A stretch of 64,000 nt of DNA. Source: Shigella phage Shfl2. The position numbers and the translations under genes were made by a program. Location of the stretch: sequence record HM035025. One strand, 5' to 3'. Positions within the stretch are counted from its first letter, which is position 1, and each line of letters starts with the position of its first letter. Shown here piece after piece: positions 12,216 through 20,318 of this stretch. The notes below the pieces were generated by a model, which saw only the letters and a list, made by a program, of their open reading frames with translations, searched no databases and had not been told where the DNA came from.

Positions 12216-12458
12216 TTATTCCTTAATTCCTAGTACTTGTTTAAAAGTCTCGTCGTAATCAAGACTTTGGCCCGTTTGTTCTTTATGTTTGTATATAATA
12301 TCACTTACTTCTGATAGCATATTTTTATATGAACGAGTTAAAGCAGATTTAAGCACGCTGTATCTATCAGGAAATTTACCATGTTCATTATAATAAGCTA
12401 TTGCTAATTCACGGACTGCCTTTTCAGCAGCCTCCATATATTCTTTACGCTTGGTCAT
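12216..12458 (-). CDS. Hypothetical protein (~80 aa from internal ATG; ORF track extends to 12617)
   Basis: ATG at 12458 overlaps the upstream stop (ATGACCAAGCGTAA); the longer version would overlap the upstream gene by 173 nt. Confidence 0.4.
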
Positions 12459-12762
12459 TTTCTTCTCGGTCAAATCGGTGTTTACAATGGCGGCATTTAT
12501 AACGAAGATTACTAGTCTGCCAATGGACCAATTGCACCTGTTCAGTTCCACATTCAGGGCAATTAGGAACGTTTTTAGAAGCCCTTTCGCGACGTTTAAC
12601 CATAGCCATAATGGCATCCCATGCTGGAGGTTTAAAATCTAAATCGTCACAACCATGAATCTTTCCACGCATTTCCATATCATCTTCCTCACCAGCCATA
12701 ATAATTTTAATTAAACTGGAATTACTTGAAGCTGCAATGTCTTCTAATAGACGCTTTTTCAT
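12445..12762 (-). CDS. Zinc-ribbon protein (105 aa)
   Basis: CPECG ... CRHCKH paired CxxC motifs. Confidence 0.55.
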
Positions 12763-13688
12763 TTCAATACCTCAATAGCATTACGTAAACCATTTGCTTT
12801 TGCATTAAGAGCTTTTAACAATTTGGTGTGTTCTGCAATTTGGGCTTCAACTTCAATCAAACGAGCATTGAGATATTCGCGTTCTTCACTCAGATTATCA
12901 ACCTTTTCTACTTTAGGCTCTTTTACAACTGTCTTATATGTATTAGGGTTCTTCAGTTTAATTAGAATGCGTGAACTGTATAACATTGAACCATTATCTT
13001 CGGTTTCGTCATACATTTCTACTACATCCATAATTTTTAACATCATGCGGAGTTTATAAGACAACGAACGAATAGTTTTGTTGTGCTTATTAATTTCTTT
13101 AGCTGTCATGGTGCCGAGATTACGTGAGTAATAATAAGGAACCTGGATATTAATTAATACTGATGAACCACCTGGCTTGTGTGTTACTTCATCAGCAATA
13201 ACCCAATCCTTAACATGAACTGTATTTGTACGGTCATCGCCCGCGGTAAATAGTTTGCGAGCATGCTTAAAAAGCATATTCACTTGGTCATTGAATTGAC
13301 AAGCAAATTTATCAGCAAATTTAGTTTCAGGAATGGTAGATAACCAATCAGCCAAATGGGTCTTTTTAACATCGTTAACAATAGTAAATTCAACCAAATC
13401 AGTTATAGATGTCTCAGATTTAATAAAGCTCGGCTTCATAAAGTTTTTAATGTTATCGCGAGCTACAGTAGAAGATAACATACGAGAACGTTTAAACCAT
13501 TGAAGCAAATTGCCCAACGAATGAGAATAAGCGTTTTGAGTATCTTTACAGATATGATTTTCCTGGCCAACATATTGAAGGAAATCACGAAGAATATTAT
13601 TGATTACTGCTCTGTGTCCGATCTGATAATTACGGTGTTTAGTAATAAGACTGTCAAAATAATCAATATAATGTTTACGAGTTTTCAT
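12759..13688 (-). CDS. Hypothetical protein, paralog family member A (309 aa) with C-terminal coiled coil
   Basis: ORF track; C-terminal heptad-like segment [42 protein letters not shown]. Confidence 0.6.
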   Translation of the reverse strand: MKTRKHYIDYFDSLITKHRNYQIGHRAVINNILRDFLQYVGQENHICKDTQNAYSHSLGNLLQWFKRSRMLSSTVARDNIKNFMKPSFIKSETSITDLVEFTIVNDVKKTHLADWLSTIPETKFADKFACQFNDQVNMLFKHARKLFTAGDDRTNTVHVKDWVIADEVTHKPGGSSVLINIQVPYYYSRNLGTMTAKEINKHNKTIRSLSYKLRMMLKIMDVVEMYDETEDNGSMLYSSRILIKLKNPNTYKTVVKEPKVEKVDNLSEEREYLNARLIEVEAQIAEHTKLLKALNAKANGLRNAIEVLK

Positions 13689-13740
13689 ATTCTTCTCACT
13701 TGGTTAATGATTTATACTCCGAGCCATCCCTGGCTTTAAA

Positions 13741-14742
13741 TTACTTAATTAACTGTAAAGCTTGTTCAAGACGATCAAGACGATTAACGGATTCTTCCCA
13801 AATCTTTTTAGCCTGCTCATATTCTTTCTGCGCTTTATTAGAAATTTCTAGAACTTCTTTATAAGCTTTTTCTAGTGCAATAACTTCTGGACGAATTTCT
13901 ACCGGTTCAGGAGAATCATCAAGATTATCCATTAGTTCCTCAAGGGTAGTTTCTTCTTTAGGAGTATTCACAATTTCATCACATTTTTGTTGGTAAATTT
14001 CTTTATCAGTCGGTGAGTACGCACACTTTACTTCACGAAGACTAACTACAATTTTATATCCTTCCCAACCGCATATATTCTTAAAAGGATATGTATGAAT
14101 ATTTTCTACTGTTTCCATACAAAGTAATGCAGTCTCTAACTGACGAGTTATAGTGCTAGCAATTGAGAAAAATTTATTAATATTCTTTTGGTTAGCGTTT
14201 GGTGTAAAAAATCCATAATTCACAAAAATAGCTACTTTATTTTCATCAAGCTCATATTCTTTTACGATAATCATATCAGAAGCCAAAGGATGAATTTGAC
14301 GATAATCACCATAACATAATTTAGAAGCTGATTTTAGAATTTGCTTCTTAAAAAGTCTGAAATTACTAATCCAACGACGAGTAAAAATATTCTCAGGGTC
14401 TTCTTTATTATTAAGATGATAAGAATTAACATCACCGAACCAATTATATCCTACTACATCTTTGGTTCGTTTAATTTCTTTCCCAAAATTACCAAGAATA
14501 TCCCGATTAACCAAATATGAAAGAAGACGAGACTCTTTAAAGGTTTTCTTGATAACATCTTTATCTACACGACTAGAAATTTTACGAATTTCATGAATAA
14601 ATTTAGTAGAAGAAACAATACTTGCATCAACACTATTGAGCCATTGATTGATAATAGAAAGAACGATATTTTGACCAAACATCGGTATAGCTTTATCATC
14701 AATAACGCTATTGAATGATTTGATATATTCGTTACGAGTCAT
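13741..14742 (-). CDS. Hypothetical protein, paralog family member B (~333 aa) with C-terminal coiled coil
   Basis: ORF track start (14772) lies at the promoter -10; ATG at 14742 has SD GAGGAG; internal block RRWISNFRLFKKQILKSASKL resembles member C. Confidence 0.6.
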   Translation of the reverse strand: MTRNEYIKSFNSVIDDKAIPMFGQNIVLSIINQWLNSVDASIVSSTKFIHEIRKISSRVDKDVIKKTFKESRLLSYLVNRDILGNFGKEIKRTKDVVGYNWFGDVNSYHLNNKEDPENIFTRRWISNFRLFKKQILKSASKLCYGDYRQIHPLASDMIIVKEYELDENKVAIFVNYGFFTPNANQKNINKFFSIASTITRQLETALLCMETVENIHTYPFKNICGWEGYKIVVSLREVKCAYSPTDKEIYQQKCDEIVNTPKEETTLEELMDNLDDSPEPVEIRPEVIALEKAYKEVLEISNKAQKEYEQAKKIWEESVNRLDRLEQALQLIK

Positions 14743-14770
14743 ATTAATCTCCTCATTAGAAAGTAAGAAC

Positions 14771-14800
14771 ATTATACCACATCCTTGTGGCGAAGTAAAC
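14771..14800 (-). promoter_or_regulatory. Sigma70-type early promoter (-35 GTTTAC, -10 TATAAT, adjacent CCACA..TGTGG hairpin)
   Basis: Plus-strand attatacca ... gtaaac between two paralog genes. Confidence 0.6.
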
Positions 14801-15825
14801 TAGTTTAGTGCATTTAGTGCATTGTTCAGTTTAGAACGTTGCTTTGTCAGATTTTGAACCCTTGACTGAGCTTGTTCTAACACCTTTTCAGCTTCTAGCA
14901 CTTCATTGGTCGCTTTAAAGAGTTCATCATCTACTGCCTTAAGAGACTTCTCAATCGCGTCAGCGTGCCATTTTTCTACAGGTTTAAGACTCGGATTTTC
15001 AACAGGAAGAAAATTCACTTTATTGAATTTCCATGCATCATTATTACCTGAACTATACATCCAAAATTTAGAATCGTTTGATGAGCAATTGGATAAATTT
15101 AAATTTAAGTTATCTTGCACTTCTTGCTTTTTCTCTTGCGGGACTTCGTCCTTTCTCAAAAAATCGTATTTAAATGAAACAATCATATCAAGTTCATATG
15201 TTGTCGTATCTAACTTAAATCGTTCAAAACGAGGTAAAATCTTAGATTGAACAGCAGCAACAACATCCATATACTTAAATGCTTCTGTCAACTGTGATTT
15301 AAGGCATTCACAAATTGAAAGAGAATTTTTTGTATTAGGTTTAAAGCTAATTCGTGCAGTTCTATTATTTTCTTTTAATGGTCTTACTTCCATCTGAAGA
15401 GTATAACCATCAAATTTCAGATTCTTTAAGTTAATATCAGAACCTTTTAATCGACTCGCAGTTGATAAAATTTGCTTTAATTGTCTACGGAACAGAGCAA
15501 TAAATCTCCATTCAATACGATAATGATTTGGATTGAAAAATCCAGATGATAAATCGACCTTACTTTGACCAACGCCTTGAACAAATAGAGGATTTTTATA
15601 ATCAATAGTTTTACAGAAATCGGTGAGCTGCTCACGAGCAGTCATTTGTGTAATATACCCCGCTTTACTAAAATGACGTAACCATTCACTGCTATTCATA
15701 TATTTAAAGTGAATATCACGATTAACTTTATCAGGGTCTAAATTATTTTGGCACAAAAATGTCATAACATCACGAGTATAGCTGGCATTACGAATCATAT
15801 CTTCAATTTGAGAACGAGTTTTCAT
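14800..15825 (-). CDS. Hypothetical protein, paralog family member C (341 aa) with C-terminal coiled coil
   Basis: ORF track; block WRFIALFRRQLKQILSTASRL shared with member B; C-terminal coiled coil. Confidence 0.6.
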   Translation of the reverse strand: MKTRSQIEDMIRNASYTRDVMTFLCQNNLDPDKVNRDIHFKYMNSSEWLRHFSKAGYITQMTAREQLTDFCKTIDYKNPLFVQGVGQSKVDLSSGFFNPNHYRIEWRFIALFRRQLKQILSTASRLKGSDINLKNLKFDGYTLQMEVRPLKENNRTARISFKPNTKNSLSICECLKSQLTEAFKYMDVVAAVQSKILPRFERFKLDTTTYELDMIVSFKYDFLRKDEVPQEKKQEVQDNLNLNLSNCSSNDSKFWMYSSGNNDAWKFNKVNFLPVENPSLKPVEKWHADAIEKSLKAVDDELFKATNEVLEAEKVLEQAQSRVQNLTKQRSKLNNALNALN

Positions 15826-15833
15826 GGTGTTCC

Positions 15834-16724
15834 TTAAGATTTAAGTAAATCAACAATTTTAATTAACTTTTCACGCTCAGATTTAGCTTTACTACTCAAT
15901 CCAGATAGTCTAAAAATTTCATCATCATATTGTTGAATAGAAATATTCAGCTCTTCAATCTGTTTATTAAAATAATCAATTTGTTCAGAATGTTTTTCGT
16001 TACTACGAACTGGTACAGGTTTTGTAGGCAATGTAGTTGAACTGGATTCATTCGGGCGATAAATTAAAATACAACTTGAACCAATAGGGCATTTTGCACC
16101 AGATGAATATTCTAATGTTCCAGCTTCTTTTAAAACTTCAAAAGCTAAACAGAGATGATGCCCCATATTAACATAATCTGTAGAGTGAGCTCTGATGTAA
16201 TAATCATCGCCACGAATACTAAATTTAAAGCATTTAAGGTCTTCTGTATTATTGGTCTTAAAAATCATTTGTTTATCTAGACCTTTAGCTAATCGAGCGC
16301 CTAATGCTAATAATCGGCGTTGATTTTCCCACAAATCCGCAATCATTTGATCGAATGATAATTTTGGCATCAGTCGACCATAAAGGTCATATCCTTTATT
16401 ATAATTACGAAGAATTTCACTCGCATTAATACGAGACAACGCTCCAATTTTATTAAGGGCTTTCATAATGCGATTAGATAAACTCATTCCAGACCCGTTT
16501 GTTCGCTGCAAATGTTTTTCTAATCCAAATCCAATATCAACTTTAAATTTATCTAAAATTTCGGCATGAACATCTCTGTCAATAACATTCAAATCCAAAG
16601 TTGAGTTAAATCTATGAAAAAATTTATCTGGCTCTGCACTGCGAAATACAGTCCATTCATTCATCATTTTTTTATTAACTAAAGATTTAATTACTGCATT
16701 GACATTATTAATTACTACTGACAT
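15834..16724 (-). CDS. Hypothetical protein, paralog family member D (~296 aa) with C-terminal coiled coil
   Basis: ATG at 16724 with SD GAGG (ORF track start 16760 overlaps upstream gene); C-terminal coiled coil. Confidence 0.55.
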   Translation of the reverse strand: MSVVINNVNAVIKSLVNKKMMNEWTVFRSAEPDKFFHRFNSTLDLNVIDRDVHAEILDKFKVDIGFGLEKHLQRTNGSGMSLSNRIMKALNKIGALSRINASEILRNYNKGYDLYGRLMPKLSFDQMIADLWENQRRLLALGARLAKGLDKQMIFKTNNTEDLKCFKFSIRGDDYYIRAHSTDYVNMGHHLCLAFEVLKEAGTLEYSSGAKCPIGSSCILIYRPNESSSTTLPTKPVPVRSNEKHSEQIDYFNKQIEELNISIQQYDDEIFRLSGLSSKAKSEREKLIKIVDLLKS

Positions 16725-16731
16725 ATTTTCC

Positions 16732-17139
16732 TCACTCAATTTCAATTTTACTAAATACACAGAATATGATTGAACAGACTACATAAGCACCACACACAGA
16801 TTGAACTAATACCATCCCAAAGAACCAAACAATATTATCAAACAGTGTCTGTTTTACGTCGAAAGGACGTAAACTTACAGTAATATTATCACCTTTTTCT
16901 ATTGAAGAATACATCTCTGGGGAAATATATTCACTAAATCTATAACCGTCTTTAAGTTCATATACGGCAATAAACGATAAACTAGACCCTTTTCCTTGTG
17001 TTCCTGTAATGGTATTAACTACAGTAACATCATAATCTTTATAATGCATATAATCATTAATTGCGTAATAACCGTATGCAACTACTACACATAAACAACA
17101 TATCAATAAATTCAATCTTTTAATTATCAACTGTTTCAT
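16732..17139 (-). CDS. Membrane protein (135 aa, TM helices at both ends)
   Basis: ORF track; hydrophobic N- and C-terminal segments. Confidence 0.5.
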   Translation of the reverse strand: MKQLIIKRLNLLICCLCVVVAYGYYAINDYMHYKDYDVTVVNTITGTQGKGSSLSFIAVYELKDGYRFSEYISPEMYSSIEKGDNITVSLRPFDVKQTLFDNIVWFFGMVLVQSVCGAYVVCSIIFCVFSKIEIE

Positions 17140-17194
17140 AATAATCTCAATTAAAAGGGCTTAGAACCATTATACCATCCTTGGTATAAAGCGG

Positions 17195-17722
17195 TTATGC
17201 GAGTACCGTCTTTAACCGTTCTTCAAACTTCCGAAGAGTATTTTGGCGTTCAGCTCTTTGCTTTTTGTAAGTTTCAATACGCTCTGAAATGAGAGTGTAT
17301 CGTTCATTTACTGATTCTTTCATAAAATCAGGAATTTCACGAGAAGCTTTAATCTCATCAAATTTATCAATAACAGCTTGCTCTTCAGCAATTAAGTTAT
17401 CATACATTAAAATATCTTTCTTGATGAACTCAATATCTTCTTGAGTTACACGAGATAATTTAGATGCTTTATCCTTTTTGTACTGTTCGTTAGTATCACG
17501 AGACCAGTGTAATGTACGATTTTTATTCGTATTTTTGTAAATTTCTACAATACCAATTTCATCAATAATAACGATCCAATTCCAACGGGATTTGTAAATT
17601 TGTCCTCCATCAACAGTGATTTCACCTCCGATTGAGATGTCATTAAAGAACTTACTCTGTGCTTCAGATTTAAATTTACCATCGTTGTAATTTACTAAGT
17701 TGAAAATATCTTTAGCGTTCAT
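17195..17722 (-). CDS. Hypothetical protein (~175 aa) with C-terminal coiled coil
   Basis: ORF track N-terminus (..CGTIQLSTTEEQK) is read-through of the promoter repeat; ATG at 17722 with SD GGAGGAA. Confidence 0.55.
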   Translation of the reverse strand: MNAKDIFNLVNYNDGKFKSEAQSKFFNDISIGGEITVDGGQIYKSRWNWIVIIDEIGIVEIYKNTNKNRTLHWSRDTNEQYKKDKASKLSRVTQEDIEFIKKDILMYDNLIAEEQAVIDKFDEIKASREIPDFMKESVNERYTLISERIETYKKQRAERQNTLRKFEERLKTVLA

Positions 17723-17747: not shown

Positions 17748-17777
17748 TGTATAGTACCACAGAGGAACAGTCTTGTA
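17748..17777 (-). promoter_or_regulatory. Early promoter cassette (-35 GTTTAC, -10 TACTAT, conserved TGGTACTATACAACTATCAAC initial region, flanking hairpin)
   Basis: Member of repeated promoter/stem-loop family. Confidence 0.55.
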
Positions 17778-17782
17778 AACAA

Positions 17783-18186: not shown

Positions 18187-19155
18187 TTATTTCAGAAGAG
18201 TAACTTCAGCGATTTCTTCCCAACCGTTTTTGTCGGTCATAATAAAGTCAGCAAGATAAAGAGCAGTACGCAGTGAAACATTGCGTAAACGATTAACATT
18301 AACTTTCATCCATGATAATGCTTTATAAGTTTCTTCATCAGAAAGACCGCGCTTTTGCATCATGTCAGTTGAAAGAATAACATCTTCAACCCTGACCATA
18401 ATTTCTTCATTAGTGTGAACACCCAAATCTAAATAAACTGAGCGGGACACTAATGCTTGTAAGTGTGGAGCAAGTTTAGTACCACGGTCTAATTCGCGGT
18501 CAATGTCAACGTTTGTGATAAAAACAATCGTTCCTTTAAATTCAAACTCACGGTCAATGCCTTTTTCTTCTAAGTAAGAAGATGCAGTGCTCCAGCAGAC
18601 TTTACGGGTCTCTCCGGTGTCCAGAGCGGCTTTTAGAAGATTAAGAATGTCCATATCAGAGAAAACATCCACATCATCAATCAAAAGGACAGAATTCTCT
18701 TCACGATTATTCCAAAGCTGCTCATAAAGACCAATACCAGAGATTTTACCATTAATGCTTTTATATTCAATGTATCCAATATCATTTGCTTTATTTAAAG
18801 CTTTATCTAAAGAATACGTTTTACCAATACCTGCTGCGCCAGAGATAATCAATGAACGAATATTTCCGTTAATAATACCATTCGTCATCATTCCCATAAC
18901 ATTAAATCTTTTATTAATGCGGGTTTTCATATCTTCATACGATTCTTTAACTTCTTCAACTTTTACACCATCATATGAAATATCTGATTTGTAAACCCAA
19001 ACACCGCGACGTTTACCGTCAATTTCAACAAAAACTTTACCATCTCCTTGTGCATCTACCGGAGCATTATCTGGGAACCATTCGCCTAAGAGCTCAAAAG
19101 TTCCAGAGATTTCTTTACCGAAGTAGATACCCTTATTGATAGTTACAGTTTTCAT
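18187..19155 (-). CDS. P-loop ATPase (AAA-like), ~322 aa
   Basis: Walker A GAAGIGKT and Walker B VLLIDDVD; ORF track N-terminus is promoter read-through, ATG at 19155 with SD GGAG. Confidence 0.6.
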   Translation of the reverse strand: MKTVTINKGIYFGKEISGTFELLGEWFPDNAPVDAQGDGKVFVEIDGKRRGVWVYKSDISYDGVKVEEVKESYEDMKTRINKRFNVMGMMTNGIINGNIRSLIISGAAGIGKTYSLDKALNKANDIGYIEYKSINGKISGIGLYEQLWNNREENSVLLIDDVDVFSDMDILNLLKAALDTGETRKVCWSTASSYLEEKGIDREFEFKGTIVFITNVDIDRELDRGTKLAPHLQALVSRSVYLDLGVHTNEEIMVRVEDVILSTDMMQKRGLSDEETYKALSWMKVNVNRLRNVSLRTALYLADFIMTDKNGWEEIAEVTLLK

Positions 19156-19163
19156 TTTATTCT

Positions 19164-19235
19164 CCAAATCCGTATCAGTTGATAGTTGTATAGTACCATC
19201 CAAATCCGTATCAGTTGATAGTTGTATAGTACCAT
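19164..19235. repeat. Perfect tandem duplication of a 36-bp unit (2 x ccaaatccgtatcagttgatagttgtatagtaccat)
   Basis: Copies at 19164-19199 and 19200-19235 are identical; unit contains the promoter -10/initial transcribed motif. Confidence 0.9.
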
Positions 19236-19255
19236 AAAGCTTTATGCCTGTAAAC
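19226..19255 (-). promoter_or_regulatory. Early promoter cassette (-35 GTTTAC, -10 TACTAT) driving the ATPase gene
   Basis: Only the distal repeat copy has a -35 at correct spacing. Confidence 0.55.
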
Positions 19256-19278
19256 CGTTTTGTGAAAAATTTTTAAAA

Positions 19279-19302
19279 TAAAAAGGGAGCCCGAAGGCTC
19301 CC
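19279..19302 (-). terminator. Rho-independent terminator (GGGAGCC-UUCG-GGCUCCC + U-run)
   Basis: Perfect 7-bp stem with UUCG tetraloop right after the stop of the 19305..20318 gene. Confidence 0.7.
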
Positions 19303-19304
19303 TA

Positions 19305-20318
19305 TCATTTATAATAACTTCGGTGGTTTTCAAGATAAACCCTCTCAAGGAAGTCATCCCAGAAACCCATGTCTACTTTTTGCTGCATACCGTTCTTAGA
19401 AGCTTCAATAGATGCTGCTTCTACTTGATCGACCACATCTTCCAAAAACTCTTGAACAGTTTTAAATGGGTGTTTACCCAGCTTCACGTCGAGAATAAAT
19501 GGAGCGTCTTGAAGTGGATAGACTAAGTCACCAGTTTTGTAAATTTCCAATAGTTGGAGTCCACCACGACAAGCATGGCTCAGAGCTTTCCAGTCAATAC
19601 CTTCATTCGCTTCAGCCTTACGAGCACGTTCACCATATTCAGCATCTAATTTGTTCAGTGACTGCTTAAGCTCAATAAGAGAAAGCGTTGTCTGATATTT
19701 ACGACCCAATACAGTGTAGAACGTTTGTGGACCTGTTTTCTCATGATTATGGAACACCCATTCACAGAATTCGTTTTCTGGAAGACGATTCTTAATATCT
19801 TCAACTTTAGTGCGACGCTGCTTAATAGAACCATCTTCTTGGTAATCAACCCATTGCTCAGGGATTTGATTAACTACTTTCAATACATCGCGTAATGCAG
19901 CCAAACGAGAACCCTTGACACCGTATTTAGAAGCTTGCTTGCGGACATATCCTAAATAGGATTTCATGTTAGTCGTATAAAAACGAGAACGGTTGTCTTG
20001 AATAAACTTCCACACATCAGGCAAATCAGATTTAACCACTAGTTCAGGCGGAGTGTGAAGCATATCCAATGCTACAGTTTCACCATCTGCTGCTAATTTA
20101 AAGAAATACTTAAGACTGTATAGTTCATGGTCAATATCATCTTTAGTGTTTTTAGATGATGTGTTGTTAGTGTTTTTACTCATGTGCTCTTTAACATTTC
20201 CGATAAGAATATCGCGAGCAGGAGGAACAAAAATTTCTTTAAAATCTACATCAGATTCTGGGGTAGAAGTTCCATAAAGATGACTACCAAAATAGCTTTT
20301 CATTACTGTTTTCATCAT
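19305..20318 (-). CDS. Predicted nucleotidyltransferase (Pol-beta-like NTase fold), 337 aa
   Basis: N-terminal motif YFGSHLYGTSTPESDVDF fits hG[GS]x9-13Dh[DE]h; rest has no recognisable motif by eye. Confidence 0.5.
   Translation of the reverse strand: MMKTVMKSYFGSHLYGTSTPESDVDFKEIFVPPARDILIGNVKEHMSKNTNNTSSKNTKDDIDHELYSLKYFFKLAADGETVALDMLHTPPELVVKSDLPDVWKFIQDNRSRFYTTNMKSYLGYVRKQASKYGVKGSRLAALRDVLKVVNQIPEQWVDYQEDGSIKQRRTKVEDIKNRLPENEFCEWVFHNHEKTGPQTFYTVLGRKYQTTLSLIELKQSLNKLDAEYGERARKAEANEGIDWKALSHACRGGLQLLEIYKTGDLVYPLQDAPFILDVKLGKHPFKTVQEFLEDVVDQVEAASIEASKNGMQQKVDMGFWDDFLERVYLENHRSYYK

Follow-up and report, generated by a model that had tools for sequence, protein, structure and literature searches.

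Remote paralogues of the anti-Dsr1 gene nrdC.5 in the early region of Shigella phage Shfl2, and their candidate role in counter-defence

Why would a T4-like phage keep a run of consecutive, similarly built genes in its early region, and are these genes related to one another? The question is posed by Shigella phage Shfl2, a Tequatrovirus, of which one stretch of 64,000 nucleotides was analysed (record HM035025; hereafter the window, whose numbering is used throughout). A 5.8-kb stretch of the window shares 96-98% DNA identity with many Tequatrovirus genomes. Here an earlier reading made from the letters alone (the sequence-only reading) had singled out five minus-strand open reading frames (ORFs) as tandem, diverging paralogues with coiled-coil tails; their coordinates stand, as do their lengths of 309, 333, 341, 296 and 175 residues. 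Using gene names assigned from T4 and a well-annotated relative, they are nrdC.3 (12759..13688), nrdC.4 (13741..14742), nrdC.5 (14800..15825), nrdC.6 (15834..16724) and nrdC.8 (17195..17722), the first four of which we also call types A to D, and the last gene E. Protein identity to T4 is 60.3% for nrdC.3, which is a highly divergent allele, 96.4% for nrdC.4, 94.4% for nrdC.5, 97% for nrdC.6 and 99% for nrdC.8.

The answer towards which we lean, without pressing it, is that nrdC.3, nrdC.4, nrdC.5 and probably nrdC.6 are modular counter-defence proteins derived from old tandem duplications, with variable heads and an oligomerising tail. In this scheme, a single Straboviridae-specific gene would have been duplicated in tandem to give the paralogues, each built of an alpha/beta head of about 230-270 residues, a disordered linker, and an amphipathic heptad helix of 42-49 residues. 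The divergent head of each paralogue would bind a different host immune protein, while the conserved tail would form homo- or hetero-oligomers and so strengthen binding to oligomeric defence enzymes through avidity. The number of copies (one to four) and the allele content would then vary among T4-like genera with the defences that their hosts carry.

Homology in the heads and the anchor in nrdC.5

The functional anchor of this proposal is nrdC.5. Its product aligns with T4 NrdC.5 over 342 positions at the 94.4% identity given above, the gene sits at the same locus between nrdC.4 and nrdC.6, and the protein covers the entire Pfam model DUF7235 (PF23882; E 1.5e-119; 399.4 bits against a gathering cut-off of 30; model positions 1-307 of 307). 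A T4 clone that had lost nrdC.5 failed to grow on either ECOR17 or MG1655 with ECOR17 dsr1, and was rescued by plasmid-borne nrdC.5 (Srikant et al., eLife 2022; PMC9391042). Dsr1 is a SIR2 NADase whose sensor recognizes phage major capsid proteins (PMC13581612). The sequence-only reading had found no function assignable, which is out of date for nrdC.5; its guess of an anti-defence role holds for this gene, whose T4 orthologue counteracts Dsr1 (PMC9391042).

How far does the family extend from this anchor? Between nrdC.3 and nrdC.4 the relationship is visible by blastp (25% over 226 residues, E 7e-7) and evident by HHalign (97.5%, E 8.6e-12, 211 columns). Both proteins match phrog_1435 end to end (E 1e-116 and 4e-169, respectively), and PF26897 (Phage_T4_Y04OP) is carried by 64 of 64 nrdC.4 homologues. 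The combined nrdC.3+nrdC.4 profile in turn aligns with nrdC.5 over 254 columns, up to the last residue (93.5%, E 2.2e-7). With the tails cut off, the HHalign scores persist at 97.6% (E 3e-12) for nrdC.3 against nrdC.4 and 91.1% (E 1e-6) for nrdC.3+nrdC.4 against nrdC.5; the homology therefore sits in the heads and cannot be put down to coiled-coil composition. On these profile comparisons, there is a solid case that nrdC.3, nrdC.4 and nrdC.5 are true remote paralogues. A metagenomic protein, P0234, joins an A/B-type head to a C-type, nrdC.5-like tail.

A short core motif lies within the heads. The sequence-only reading had pointed to an internal block common to nrdC.4 and nrdC.5, and this block is real: HHalign pairs residues 122-142 of nrdC.4 with 106-126 of nrdC.5. 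In the same alignment, the conserved motif reads RRWISNFRLFKKQILKSASKLCYGDYRQ in nrdC.4 (14296..14379, minus strand), and counterparts occur on the same strand in nrdC.3 (13227-13307), nrdC.5 (15427-15510) and, beyond the three secure paralogues, nrdC.6 (16269-16346). Its consensus, hh..[IL][LF]..[AG][AS][RK]L..G[DS], falls on a conserved helix pair.

External comparisons yielded little for the heads. A PDB profile search with nrdC.4 and nrdC.6 returned only designed helical-repeat proteins, which we judged spurious, or nothing, and we found no solved structure or informative fold match for the nrdC.3-.6 or nrdC.8 proteins. A PADLOC scan of defence models gave only marginal matches of coiled-coil type (BrxC, E 0.0027; BrxF, E 0.034).

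Heptad tails, nrdC.6 and nrdC.8

The C-terminal tails are the second common feature. We took as a coiled coil at least four uninterrupted heptads with hydrophobic a/d positions, without Pro or Gly, in a predicted helix; the tails of nrdC.3-.6 contain 6-7 such heptads, with that of nrdC.6 kinked once at RLSGLSS. All lie on the minus strand. In nrdC.3 the 42-residue tail (12762..12887) has hydrophobic residues at 0.83 of a/d positions versus 0.33 elsewhere, a contrast reached by 51 of 2000 composition-preserving shuffles, the number run for each protein. Corresponding values for the 49-residue tails are 0.86 versus 0.26 in nrdC.4 (13744..13890; 3 of 2000 shuffles), 0.93 versus 0.17 in nrdC.5 (14803..14949; none of 2000), and 0.86 versus 0.20 in nrdC.6 (15837..15983; helix-kink-helix; 1 of 2000). 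A cruder scan with 28-residue segments places the best segment of all five proteins within roughly their last 50 residues, and puts all five among the nine highest-ranking of 67 window ORFs, beside the known coiled coil of fibritin. The heptad-rich tails attributed to the four large proteins are thereby confirmed as 42-49 unbroken residues.

AlphaFold models agree with this layout. That of nrdC.4 comprises a head (residues 1-260), a disordered linker (261-283) and a single tail helix (285-332); in nrdC.6 the tail is modelled as two helices (243-272 and 278-295), again behind a disordered linker. Counted from the C-terminus, the heptad register is equal in nrdC.3, nrdC.4 and nrdC.5, and in nrdC.6 too once one extra terminal residue is dropped. 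The four proteins end in the motif L-x-x-[AI]-[LIV]-x-x-[LI]-[KN], which occurs in none of the other ORFs among the 165 of at least 50 residues in the window; 0.025 occurrences are expected after shuffling, for a pattern that was defined post hoc. No other segment is as well conserved within the families as the tail: 0.79 against 0.65 for the head in the nrdC.4 family (last block, 0.87), 0.80 against 0.72 in the nrdC.6 family, and 0.75 for the last block against 0.4-0.6 in the nrdC.5 family. In the nrdC.4 family almost every tail position is invariant, a/d and others alike, as in the stretch WEESTNRLDxLEQALELLK. As a separate observation, the annotated nrdC.5 of RB69 (AY303349, 14348-15372; 300 residues) has a non-helical end, and an unbroken C-type coiled-coil tail (…LQLQYSKLFNAMNALKS) can be read in a different frame; the record thus contains a frameshift, whether genuine or an error.

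We regard nrdC.6 as a probable family member, judging from its sequence and its predicted structure. It matches phrog_2257 (E 1.8e-151), and PF26899 (Phage_T4_Y05B) is carried by 105 of 105 nrdC.6 homologues. A direct HHalign comparison with nrdC.4 is weak (E 0.006) and colinear over 163 columns. The AlphaFold models of nrdC.4 and nrdC.6 (predicted local distance difference test scores of 82.8 and 78) share one order of elements, from a helical bundle at the N-terminus through a small beta-meander, a helix pair with a short helix, and a long helix set between two beta-hairpins, to the disordered linker and the terminal helix. The core motif (RRWISNFRLFKKQILKSASKL in nrdC.4, DLWENQRRLLALGARLAKG in nrdC.6) falls on the equivalent helix pair of both. 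Foldseek searches of BFVD point the same way: seven of the eight significant nrdC.6 matches outside its own family are also significant for nrdC.4 (E 1e-7 to 8e-4, template-modelling scores 0.31-0.49, 309-389 aligned columns), and these are proteins of 304-374 residues from T4-like phages of Enterobacter, Pectobacterium, Acinetobacter, Erwinia, Klebsiella and Yersinia. A chain of sequence matches also connects nrdC.6 to the others, from nrdC.6 to PG7 gp082 (72.6%, E 3e-5), from there to Mexia_081 (blastp E 3.7e-6), and on to nrdC.3+nrdC.4 (87.8%, E 3e-6); the first and last of these links came from single-sequence HHalign. Few further sequences for the bridging families were gained from IMG/VR, and a single frameshifted copy cut the Mexia-family score.

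The reference T4 genome bears on how nrdC.6 is read. Relative to the window (15834-15990) and phage NR1, T4 NC_000866 (7497-7660) lacks one A in nrdC.6, and the resulting frame shift removes the last three heptads, leaving 275 residues rather than 296; the downstream DNA is otherwise identical. Since the gene is given at its full 891 nt in the T4 annotation that the HIDEN-SEQ supplement uses, the reference probably contains a sequencing error or a strain-specific mutation.

For nrdC.8, membership is not demonstrable. The protein is half the size, lacks the head motif and has a charged helical C-terminus; it matches phrog_2274, and PF26901 occurs in an nrdC.8 homologue. HHalign gives at most 1% against each of the A+B, C, D, K and M profiles, and nrdC.8 was rejected as a fifth member for want of any similarity. 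Its tail, which had been described as of the same kind, has a weaker heptad pattern: hydrophobic residues fill 0.64 of a/d positions, the contrast is equalled in 62 of 2000 shuffles, a Pro lies inside the segment, and tail hidden Markov models (HMMs) built with one family left out miss it. As far as its sequence allows a judgement, nrdC.8 is best treated as a neighbouring gene in the same transcription unit, its membership undemonstrated. The tandem paralogy first proposed for five genes consequently holds by HHalign for nrdC.3, nrdC.4 and nrdC.5, is probable for nrdC.6, and falls away for nrdC.8.

Distribution, alleles and transcription of the locus

A whole-library HMMER search with the nrdC.3+nrdC.4 profile found just 10 representative clusters among 1.84 billion proteins, recovered no nrdC.5 or nrdC.6, and revealed no bacterial or non-Straboviridae relatives at the sequence level. 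All relatives found are from Straboviridae, in the syntenic interval from nrdC.10 to nrdC, and the families are kept in hundreds of phage genomes. Tequatrovirus has four members. RB69 (Mosigvirus) has three, one each of A/B, C and D type, as do Dhakavirus, Gaprivervirus and a divergent metagenomic phage. Acinetobacter phage Acj61 has two, with adjacent accessions, while Karamvirus PG7, Klebsiella phage Mexia and Acinetobacter phage fHyAci03 have one each; none was detected at the syntenic locus of Aes508 and Miro. An HMM profile search of the syntenic loci of PG7, Mexia, fHyAci03, Aes508 and Miro returned nothing, after which single-sequence HHalign linked PG7 gp082 to nrdC.6 and Mexia_081 to nrdC.3+nrdC.4. 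Syntenic neighbours of 260-300 residues were judged unrelated (PG7 gp085, Mexia_082, fHyAci03 gp125, Aes508 gp056 and Miro133).

Rearranged copies also occur. In P0120, the C-terminal part of a C head is joined in frame to the rear of A, with B lost; in ACG-C40 (NC_019399.1, 47512-47923), residues 1-68 of nrdC.5 are fused in frame to residues 238-309 of nrdC.3. Between the nrdC.6-type and nrdC.5-type genes of Dhakavirus, Gaprivervirus and the divergent metagenomic phage lies a conserved 71-residue ORF (around 8700-8950 in L002-L005 and 5777-5992 in L023) that is absent from Tequatrovirus.

Among the four genes, nrdC.3 stands out for its alleles. By identity to the window copy they fall into classes of 94-100% (356 records), 75-79% (Mosigvirus) and 59-61% (T4 type), such that the window gene is closer to the Mosigvirus orthologue than to the T4 type, while its flanks keep 94-99% identity to T4. 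Between the window and T4 types, the first 60 residues are 80-95% identical, the middle 25-65% and the tail 75-100%. Pairwise ratios of nonsynonymous to synonymous substitution (dN/dS) between the window and T4 are 0.30 for nrdC.3, 0.18 for nrdC.4, 0.15 for nrdC.5 and 0.17 for nrdC.6, against 0-0.03 for nrdC, nrdC.8 and nrdC.9. Constraint on nrdC.3-.6 is relaxed and selection is net purifying. The diversifying selection invoked by the sequence-only reading is unsupported at these ratios, its sole hint being the deep nrdC.3 allele classes; the dS of about 1 for nrdC.3 suggests that recombination has transferred an old allele.

T4-type early promoters were predicted by a pattern scan directly upstream of nrdC.4 (14771..14800, minus strand; GTTTACTTCGCCACAAGGATGTGGTATAAT), from where nrdC.3 and nrdC.2 would also be served, and of nrdC.8 (17751..17780, minus strand), as had been noted. 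The pattern GTTTAC-N15-TGnTAnnnT has 11 exact matches in the window, where chance predicts 0.05; they lie between 7392 and 38175, every one on the minus strand, and their density marks the whole first 40 kb of the window as a putative early region. A further early promoter precedes nrdC.10 (19226-19255), directly after a perfect 8-bp GC-rich hairpin with a T-run (AGGGAGCC-TTCG-GGCTCCCT, 19284-19303) that lies between nrdC.11 and nrdC.10 and is the only strong terminator-like site in 12-20.5 kb. Because no terminator is predicted between them, the nrdC.8 promoter probably also serves nrdC.7, nrdC.6 and nrdC.5. Promoter sites and the sole terminator together suggest three likely units: nrdC.10-.9, nrdC.8-.7-.6-.5 and nrdC.4-.3-.2.

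The neighbours are of diverse kinds. Between nrdC.6 and nrdC.8 lies an nrdC.7-like predicted membrane protein gene (16732..17139, minus strand; 135 residues), outside the family and placed elsewhere in RB69 and PG7. On the other flank, the product of nrdC.2 (12445-12762; 105 residues) has at its C-terminus a zinc ribbon with four cysteines (CPEC…CRHC); translational coupling of nrdC.3 and nrdC.2 is suggested by the 4 nt (ATGA) that the stop of the one shares with the start of the other. After nrdC.8 come nrdC.9, nrdC.10 and nrdC.11. Within 18187-20318, the product of nrdC.10 is a P-loop ATPase, AAA/STAND-like, and that of nrdC.11 a nucleotidyltransferase of the RlaP type, associated with RNA repair. 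The latter gene is kept far more widely than the adjoining paralogues, in 1508 records of phages whose hosts range from Escherichia to Vibrio, Acinetobacter and Aeromonas.

Many GenBank records label nrdC.3-nrdC.11 as "thioredoxin". This label is ruled out, as no thioredoxin or reductase domain is present: there is no thioredoxin or glutaredoxin Pfam match in nrdC.3, nrdC.4, nrdC.5, nrdC.6 or nrdC.8, and the AlphaFold models of nrdC.4 and nrdC.6 differ in fold from thioredoxin. It was carried over from the positional names nrdC.x, downstream of nrdC, and one 2026 paper handles nrdC.8 as a nucleotide reductase (PMC13275509).

Counter-defence as a candidate role and its precedents

Could the resemblance arise by chance or from low-complexity composition in an AT-rich genome? 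Tails rich in E, K, Q and L align easily, but the head-only profile matches (E 3e-12 and 1e-6) refute chance, the heptad shuffle controls were passed and the families persist across hundreds of genomes, making this explanation scarcely credible. A narrower family deserves more attention, in which only nrdC.3, nrdC.4 and nrdC.5 are paralogous, and nrdC.6 is no more related to them than nrdC.8 is, being an early protein that bears a C-terminal coiled coil independently, so that the four-member grouping would partly reflect shared tail composition. Several results weigh on that side and against the broader family. With its tail removed, the nrdC.6 head reaches only 1.9% (E 0.026) against nrdC.3+nrdC.4, 0.4% against nrdC.5 and 6.5% (E 0.0056) against PG7 gp082, none of them significant; the score linking nrdC.6 to PG7 gp082 comes largely from tail and linker; and the Foldseek lists of nrdC.4 and nrdC.6 contain no direct match to each other's families, in a setting where long helices inflate 3Di matches. 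Yet the two models share their order of elements and carry the motif on an equivalent helix pair, the seven common Foldseek matches extend over 309-389 columns, far beyond the reach of a 50-residue helix, the weak direct match is colinear over its 163 columns, and nrdC.6 equals the other members in synteny, size and tail register. On balance we consider the narrower family unlikely.

Our proposal of modular counter-defence proteins must also be weighed against other views of what heads and tails do. The family might not serve counter-defence in general: the effect of nrdC.5 on Dsr1 could be special or indirect, with the remaining genes devoted to host take-over or physiology (transcription, the nucleoid, the membrane or particular growth conditions). 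Experimental support does come from nrdC.5 alone, through rescue; dN/dS of 0.15-0.30 lacks the whole-gene sign of an arms race; and one HIDEN-SEQ comparison, for an unspecified condition, found no fitness effect for nrdC.3-.6 (bioRxiv 10.1101/2025.11.20.689424). These points count against us. Speaking for counter-defence, nrdC.3-.6 are dispensable on laboratory hosts: nrdC.1-6 can be removed from T4 (PMC9825161), and transposon mapping finds nrdC.3-.9 non-essential (supplement, bioRxiv 10.1101/2025.11.20.689424). They also sit amid three experimentally shown anti-defence genes, with close neighbours gp49.2 inhibiting OLD (PMC13096335) and nrdC.1 inhibiting Septu (bioRxiv 10.1101/2025.11.20.689424). 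Copy number changes between genera, natural deletion and fusion variants exist and nrdC.3 has deep allele classes, a pattern of dispensability and variation typical of accessory host-range genes. A family without a general counter-defence role thus strikes us as somewhat unlikely. As for the tails, oligomerisation is deduced from the heptad pattern and monomer models only, and leave-one-family-out tail HMMs miss the omitted family, between-family tail similarity being not significant; tail homology is therefore not claimable from the tails alone, and both points temper our proposal. The tail might instead be a docking signal that brings the heads to one common partner, be it a host or phage hub, or to each other as a hetero-oligomer. 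Conservation of tail positions almost throughout each family, beyond a/d, the register and terminal motif common to all four, and nrdC.3 alleles that keep the N-terminal 60 residues and the tail while the middle diverges would suit docking; no partner is known for the tails, however, and their lack of significant likeness between families argues against a single common receptor, so we find docking doubtful. More speculative still, and to our minds improbable, is that the nrdC.3-.6 tails co-assemble as hetero-oligomers or dock on one hub, yielding a multi-headed particle on which each head blocks a different immune sensor, with Dsr1 the first known target. Were it true, phages could retune their host range by exchanging heads, or adding copies of them, above an unchanging stalk; the 60%-identical nrdC.3 alleles and the natural C/A fusions are suggestive of this.

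What does the modular counter-defence proposal add? The genes, their early expression, their dispensability, the function of nrdC.5 and the relation between nrdC.3 and nrdC.4 (in PHROGs and Pfam) were already known. Databases keep three separate families without assigned function, for nrdC.3/.4, nrdC.5 and nrdC.6: PF26897/PHROG 1435 already unites nrdC.3 and nrdC.4, and PF26899 holds nrdC.6 apart. In the databases and literature searched, we found no record of the link from nrdC.3+nrdC.4 to nrdC.5 (and probably nrdC.6), of the three-part architecture, or of the tail register and motif; literature searches by Pfam and protein accession returned nothing relevant. The advance is incremental, with nrdC.3, nrdC.4 and nrdC.6 becoming candidate inhibitors of other bacterial defences, a role that we infer for them from the family link. 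Most of the roughly 100 dispensable early genes of T4, although it is the reference phage, are without assigned function, and this link makes three of them specific candidates. It also offers a guide to mutational work, in which the variable head would set target specificity and the conserved tail would drive assembly, accounts for the copy-number and allele variation of the block among T4-like genera, and flags the widespread "thioredoxin" annotation as wrong.

The closest known system is T4 NrdC.5 itself. The window gene is its orthologue, at 94.4% identity over the full length, in the same position and likewise early; nrdC.3, nrdC.4 and probably nrdC.6 are remote paralogues of like three-part architecture. 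Activity against Dsr1 is known only for the T4 protein and, as the heads of the paralogues have only 12-25% of residues in common, their targets probably differ. The T4 internal proteins IPI, IPII and IPIII provide a parallel in organization, as a T-even accessory set in which a short targeting element is conserved and the bodies vary; at least two overcome host defences, namely IPIII (PMC9391042) and IPI, which acts against GmrSD (bioRxiv 10.1101/2025.11.20.689424). They differ in having an N-terminal capsid-targeting sequence and being packaged late, whereas the nrdC proteins have a C-terminal coiled coil and would be early and cytoplasmic, and no homology is implied. DSAD1 of Bacillus phage SPbeta is a phage protein that binds and neutralizes the defence-associated sirtuin DSR2 (PMC10973363, PMC10981675, PMC11087589); it is likened here by description only, belongs to another phage group, and has a target that senses the tail tube. 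Finally, NAD+ reconstitution of the NARP2 type is also a phage answer to NAD-depleting defences, DSR1 included, although it employs NAD+-rebuilding enzymes rather than head-and-tail proteins, with no similarity to the nrdC.3-.6 family. In the syntenic nrdC.11-nrdC region, Aeromonas phage Aes508 (7630-8688 and 13205-14677) and Klebsiella phage Miro (7100-8161) have Nampt and/or NMNAT-Nudix genes, and the nrdC.11 locus of T4-like genera may hold different answers to NAD-depleting defences.

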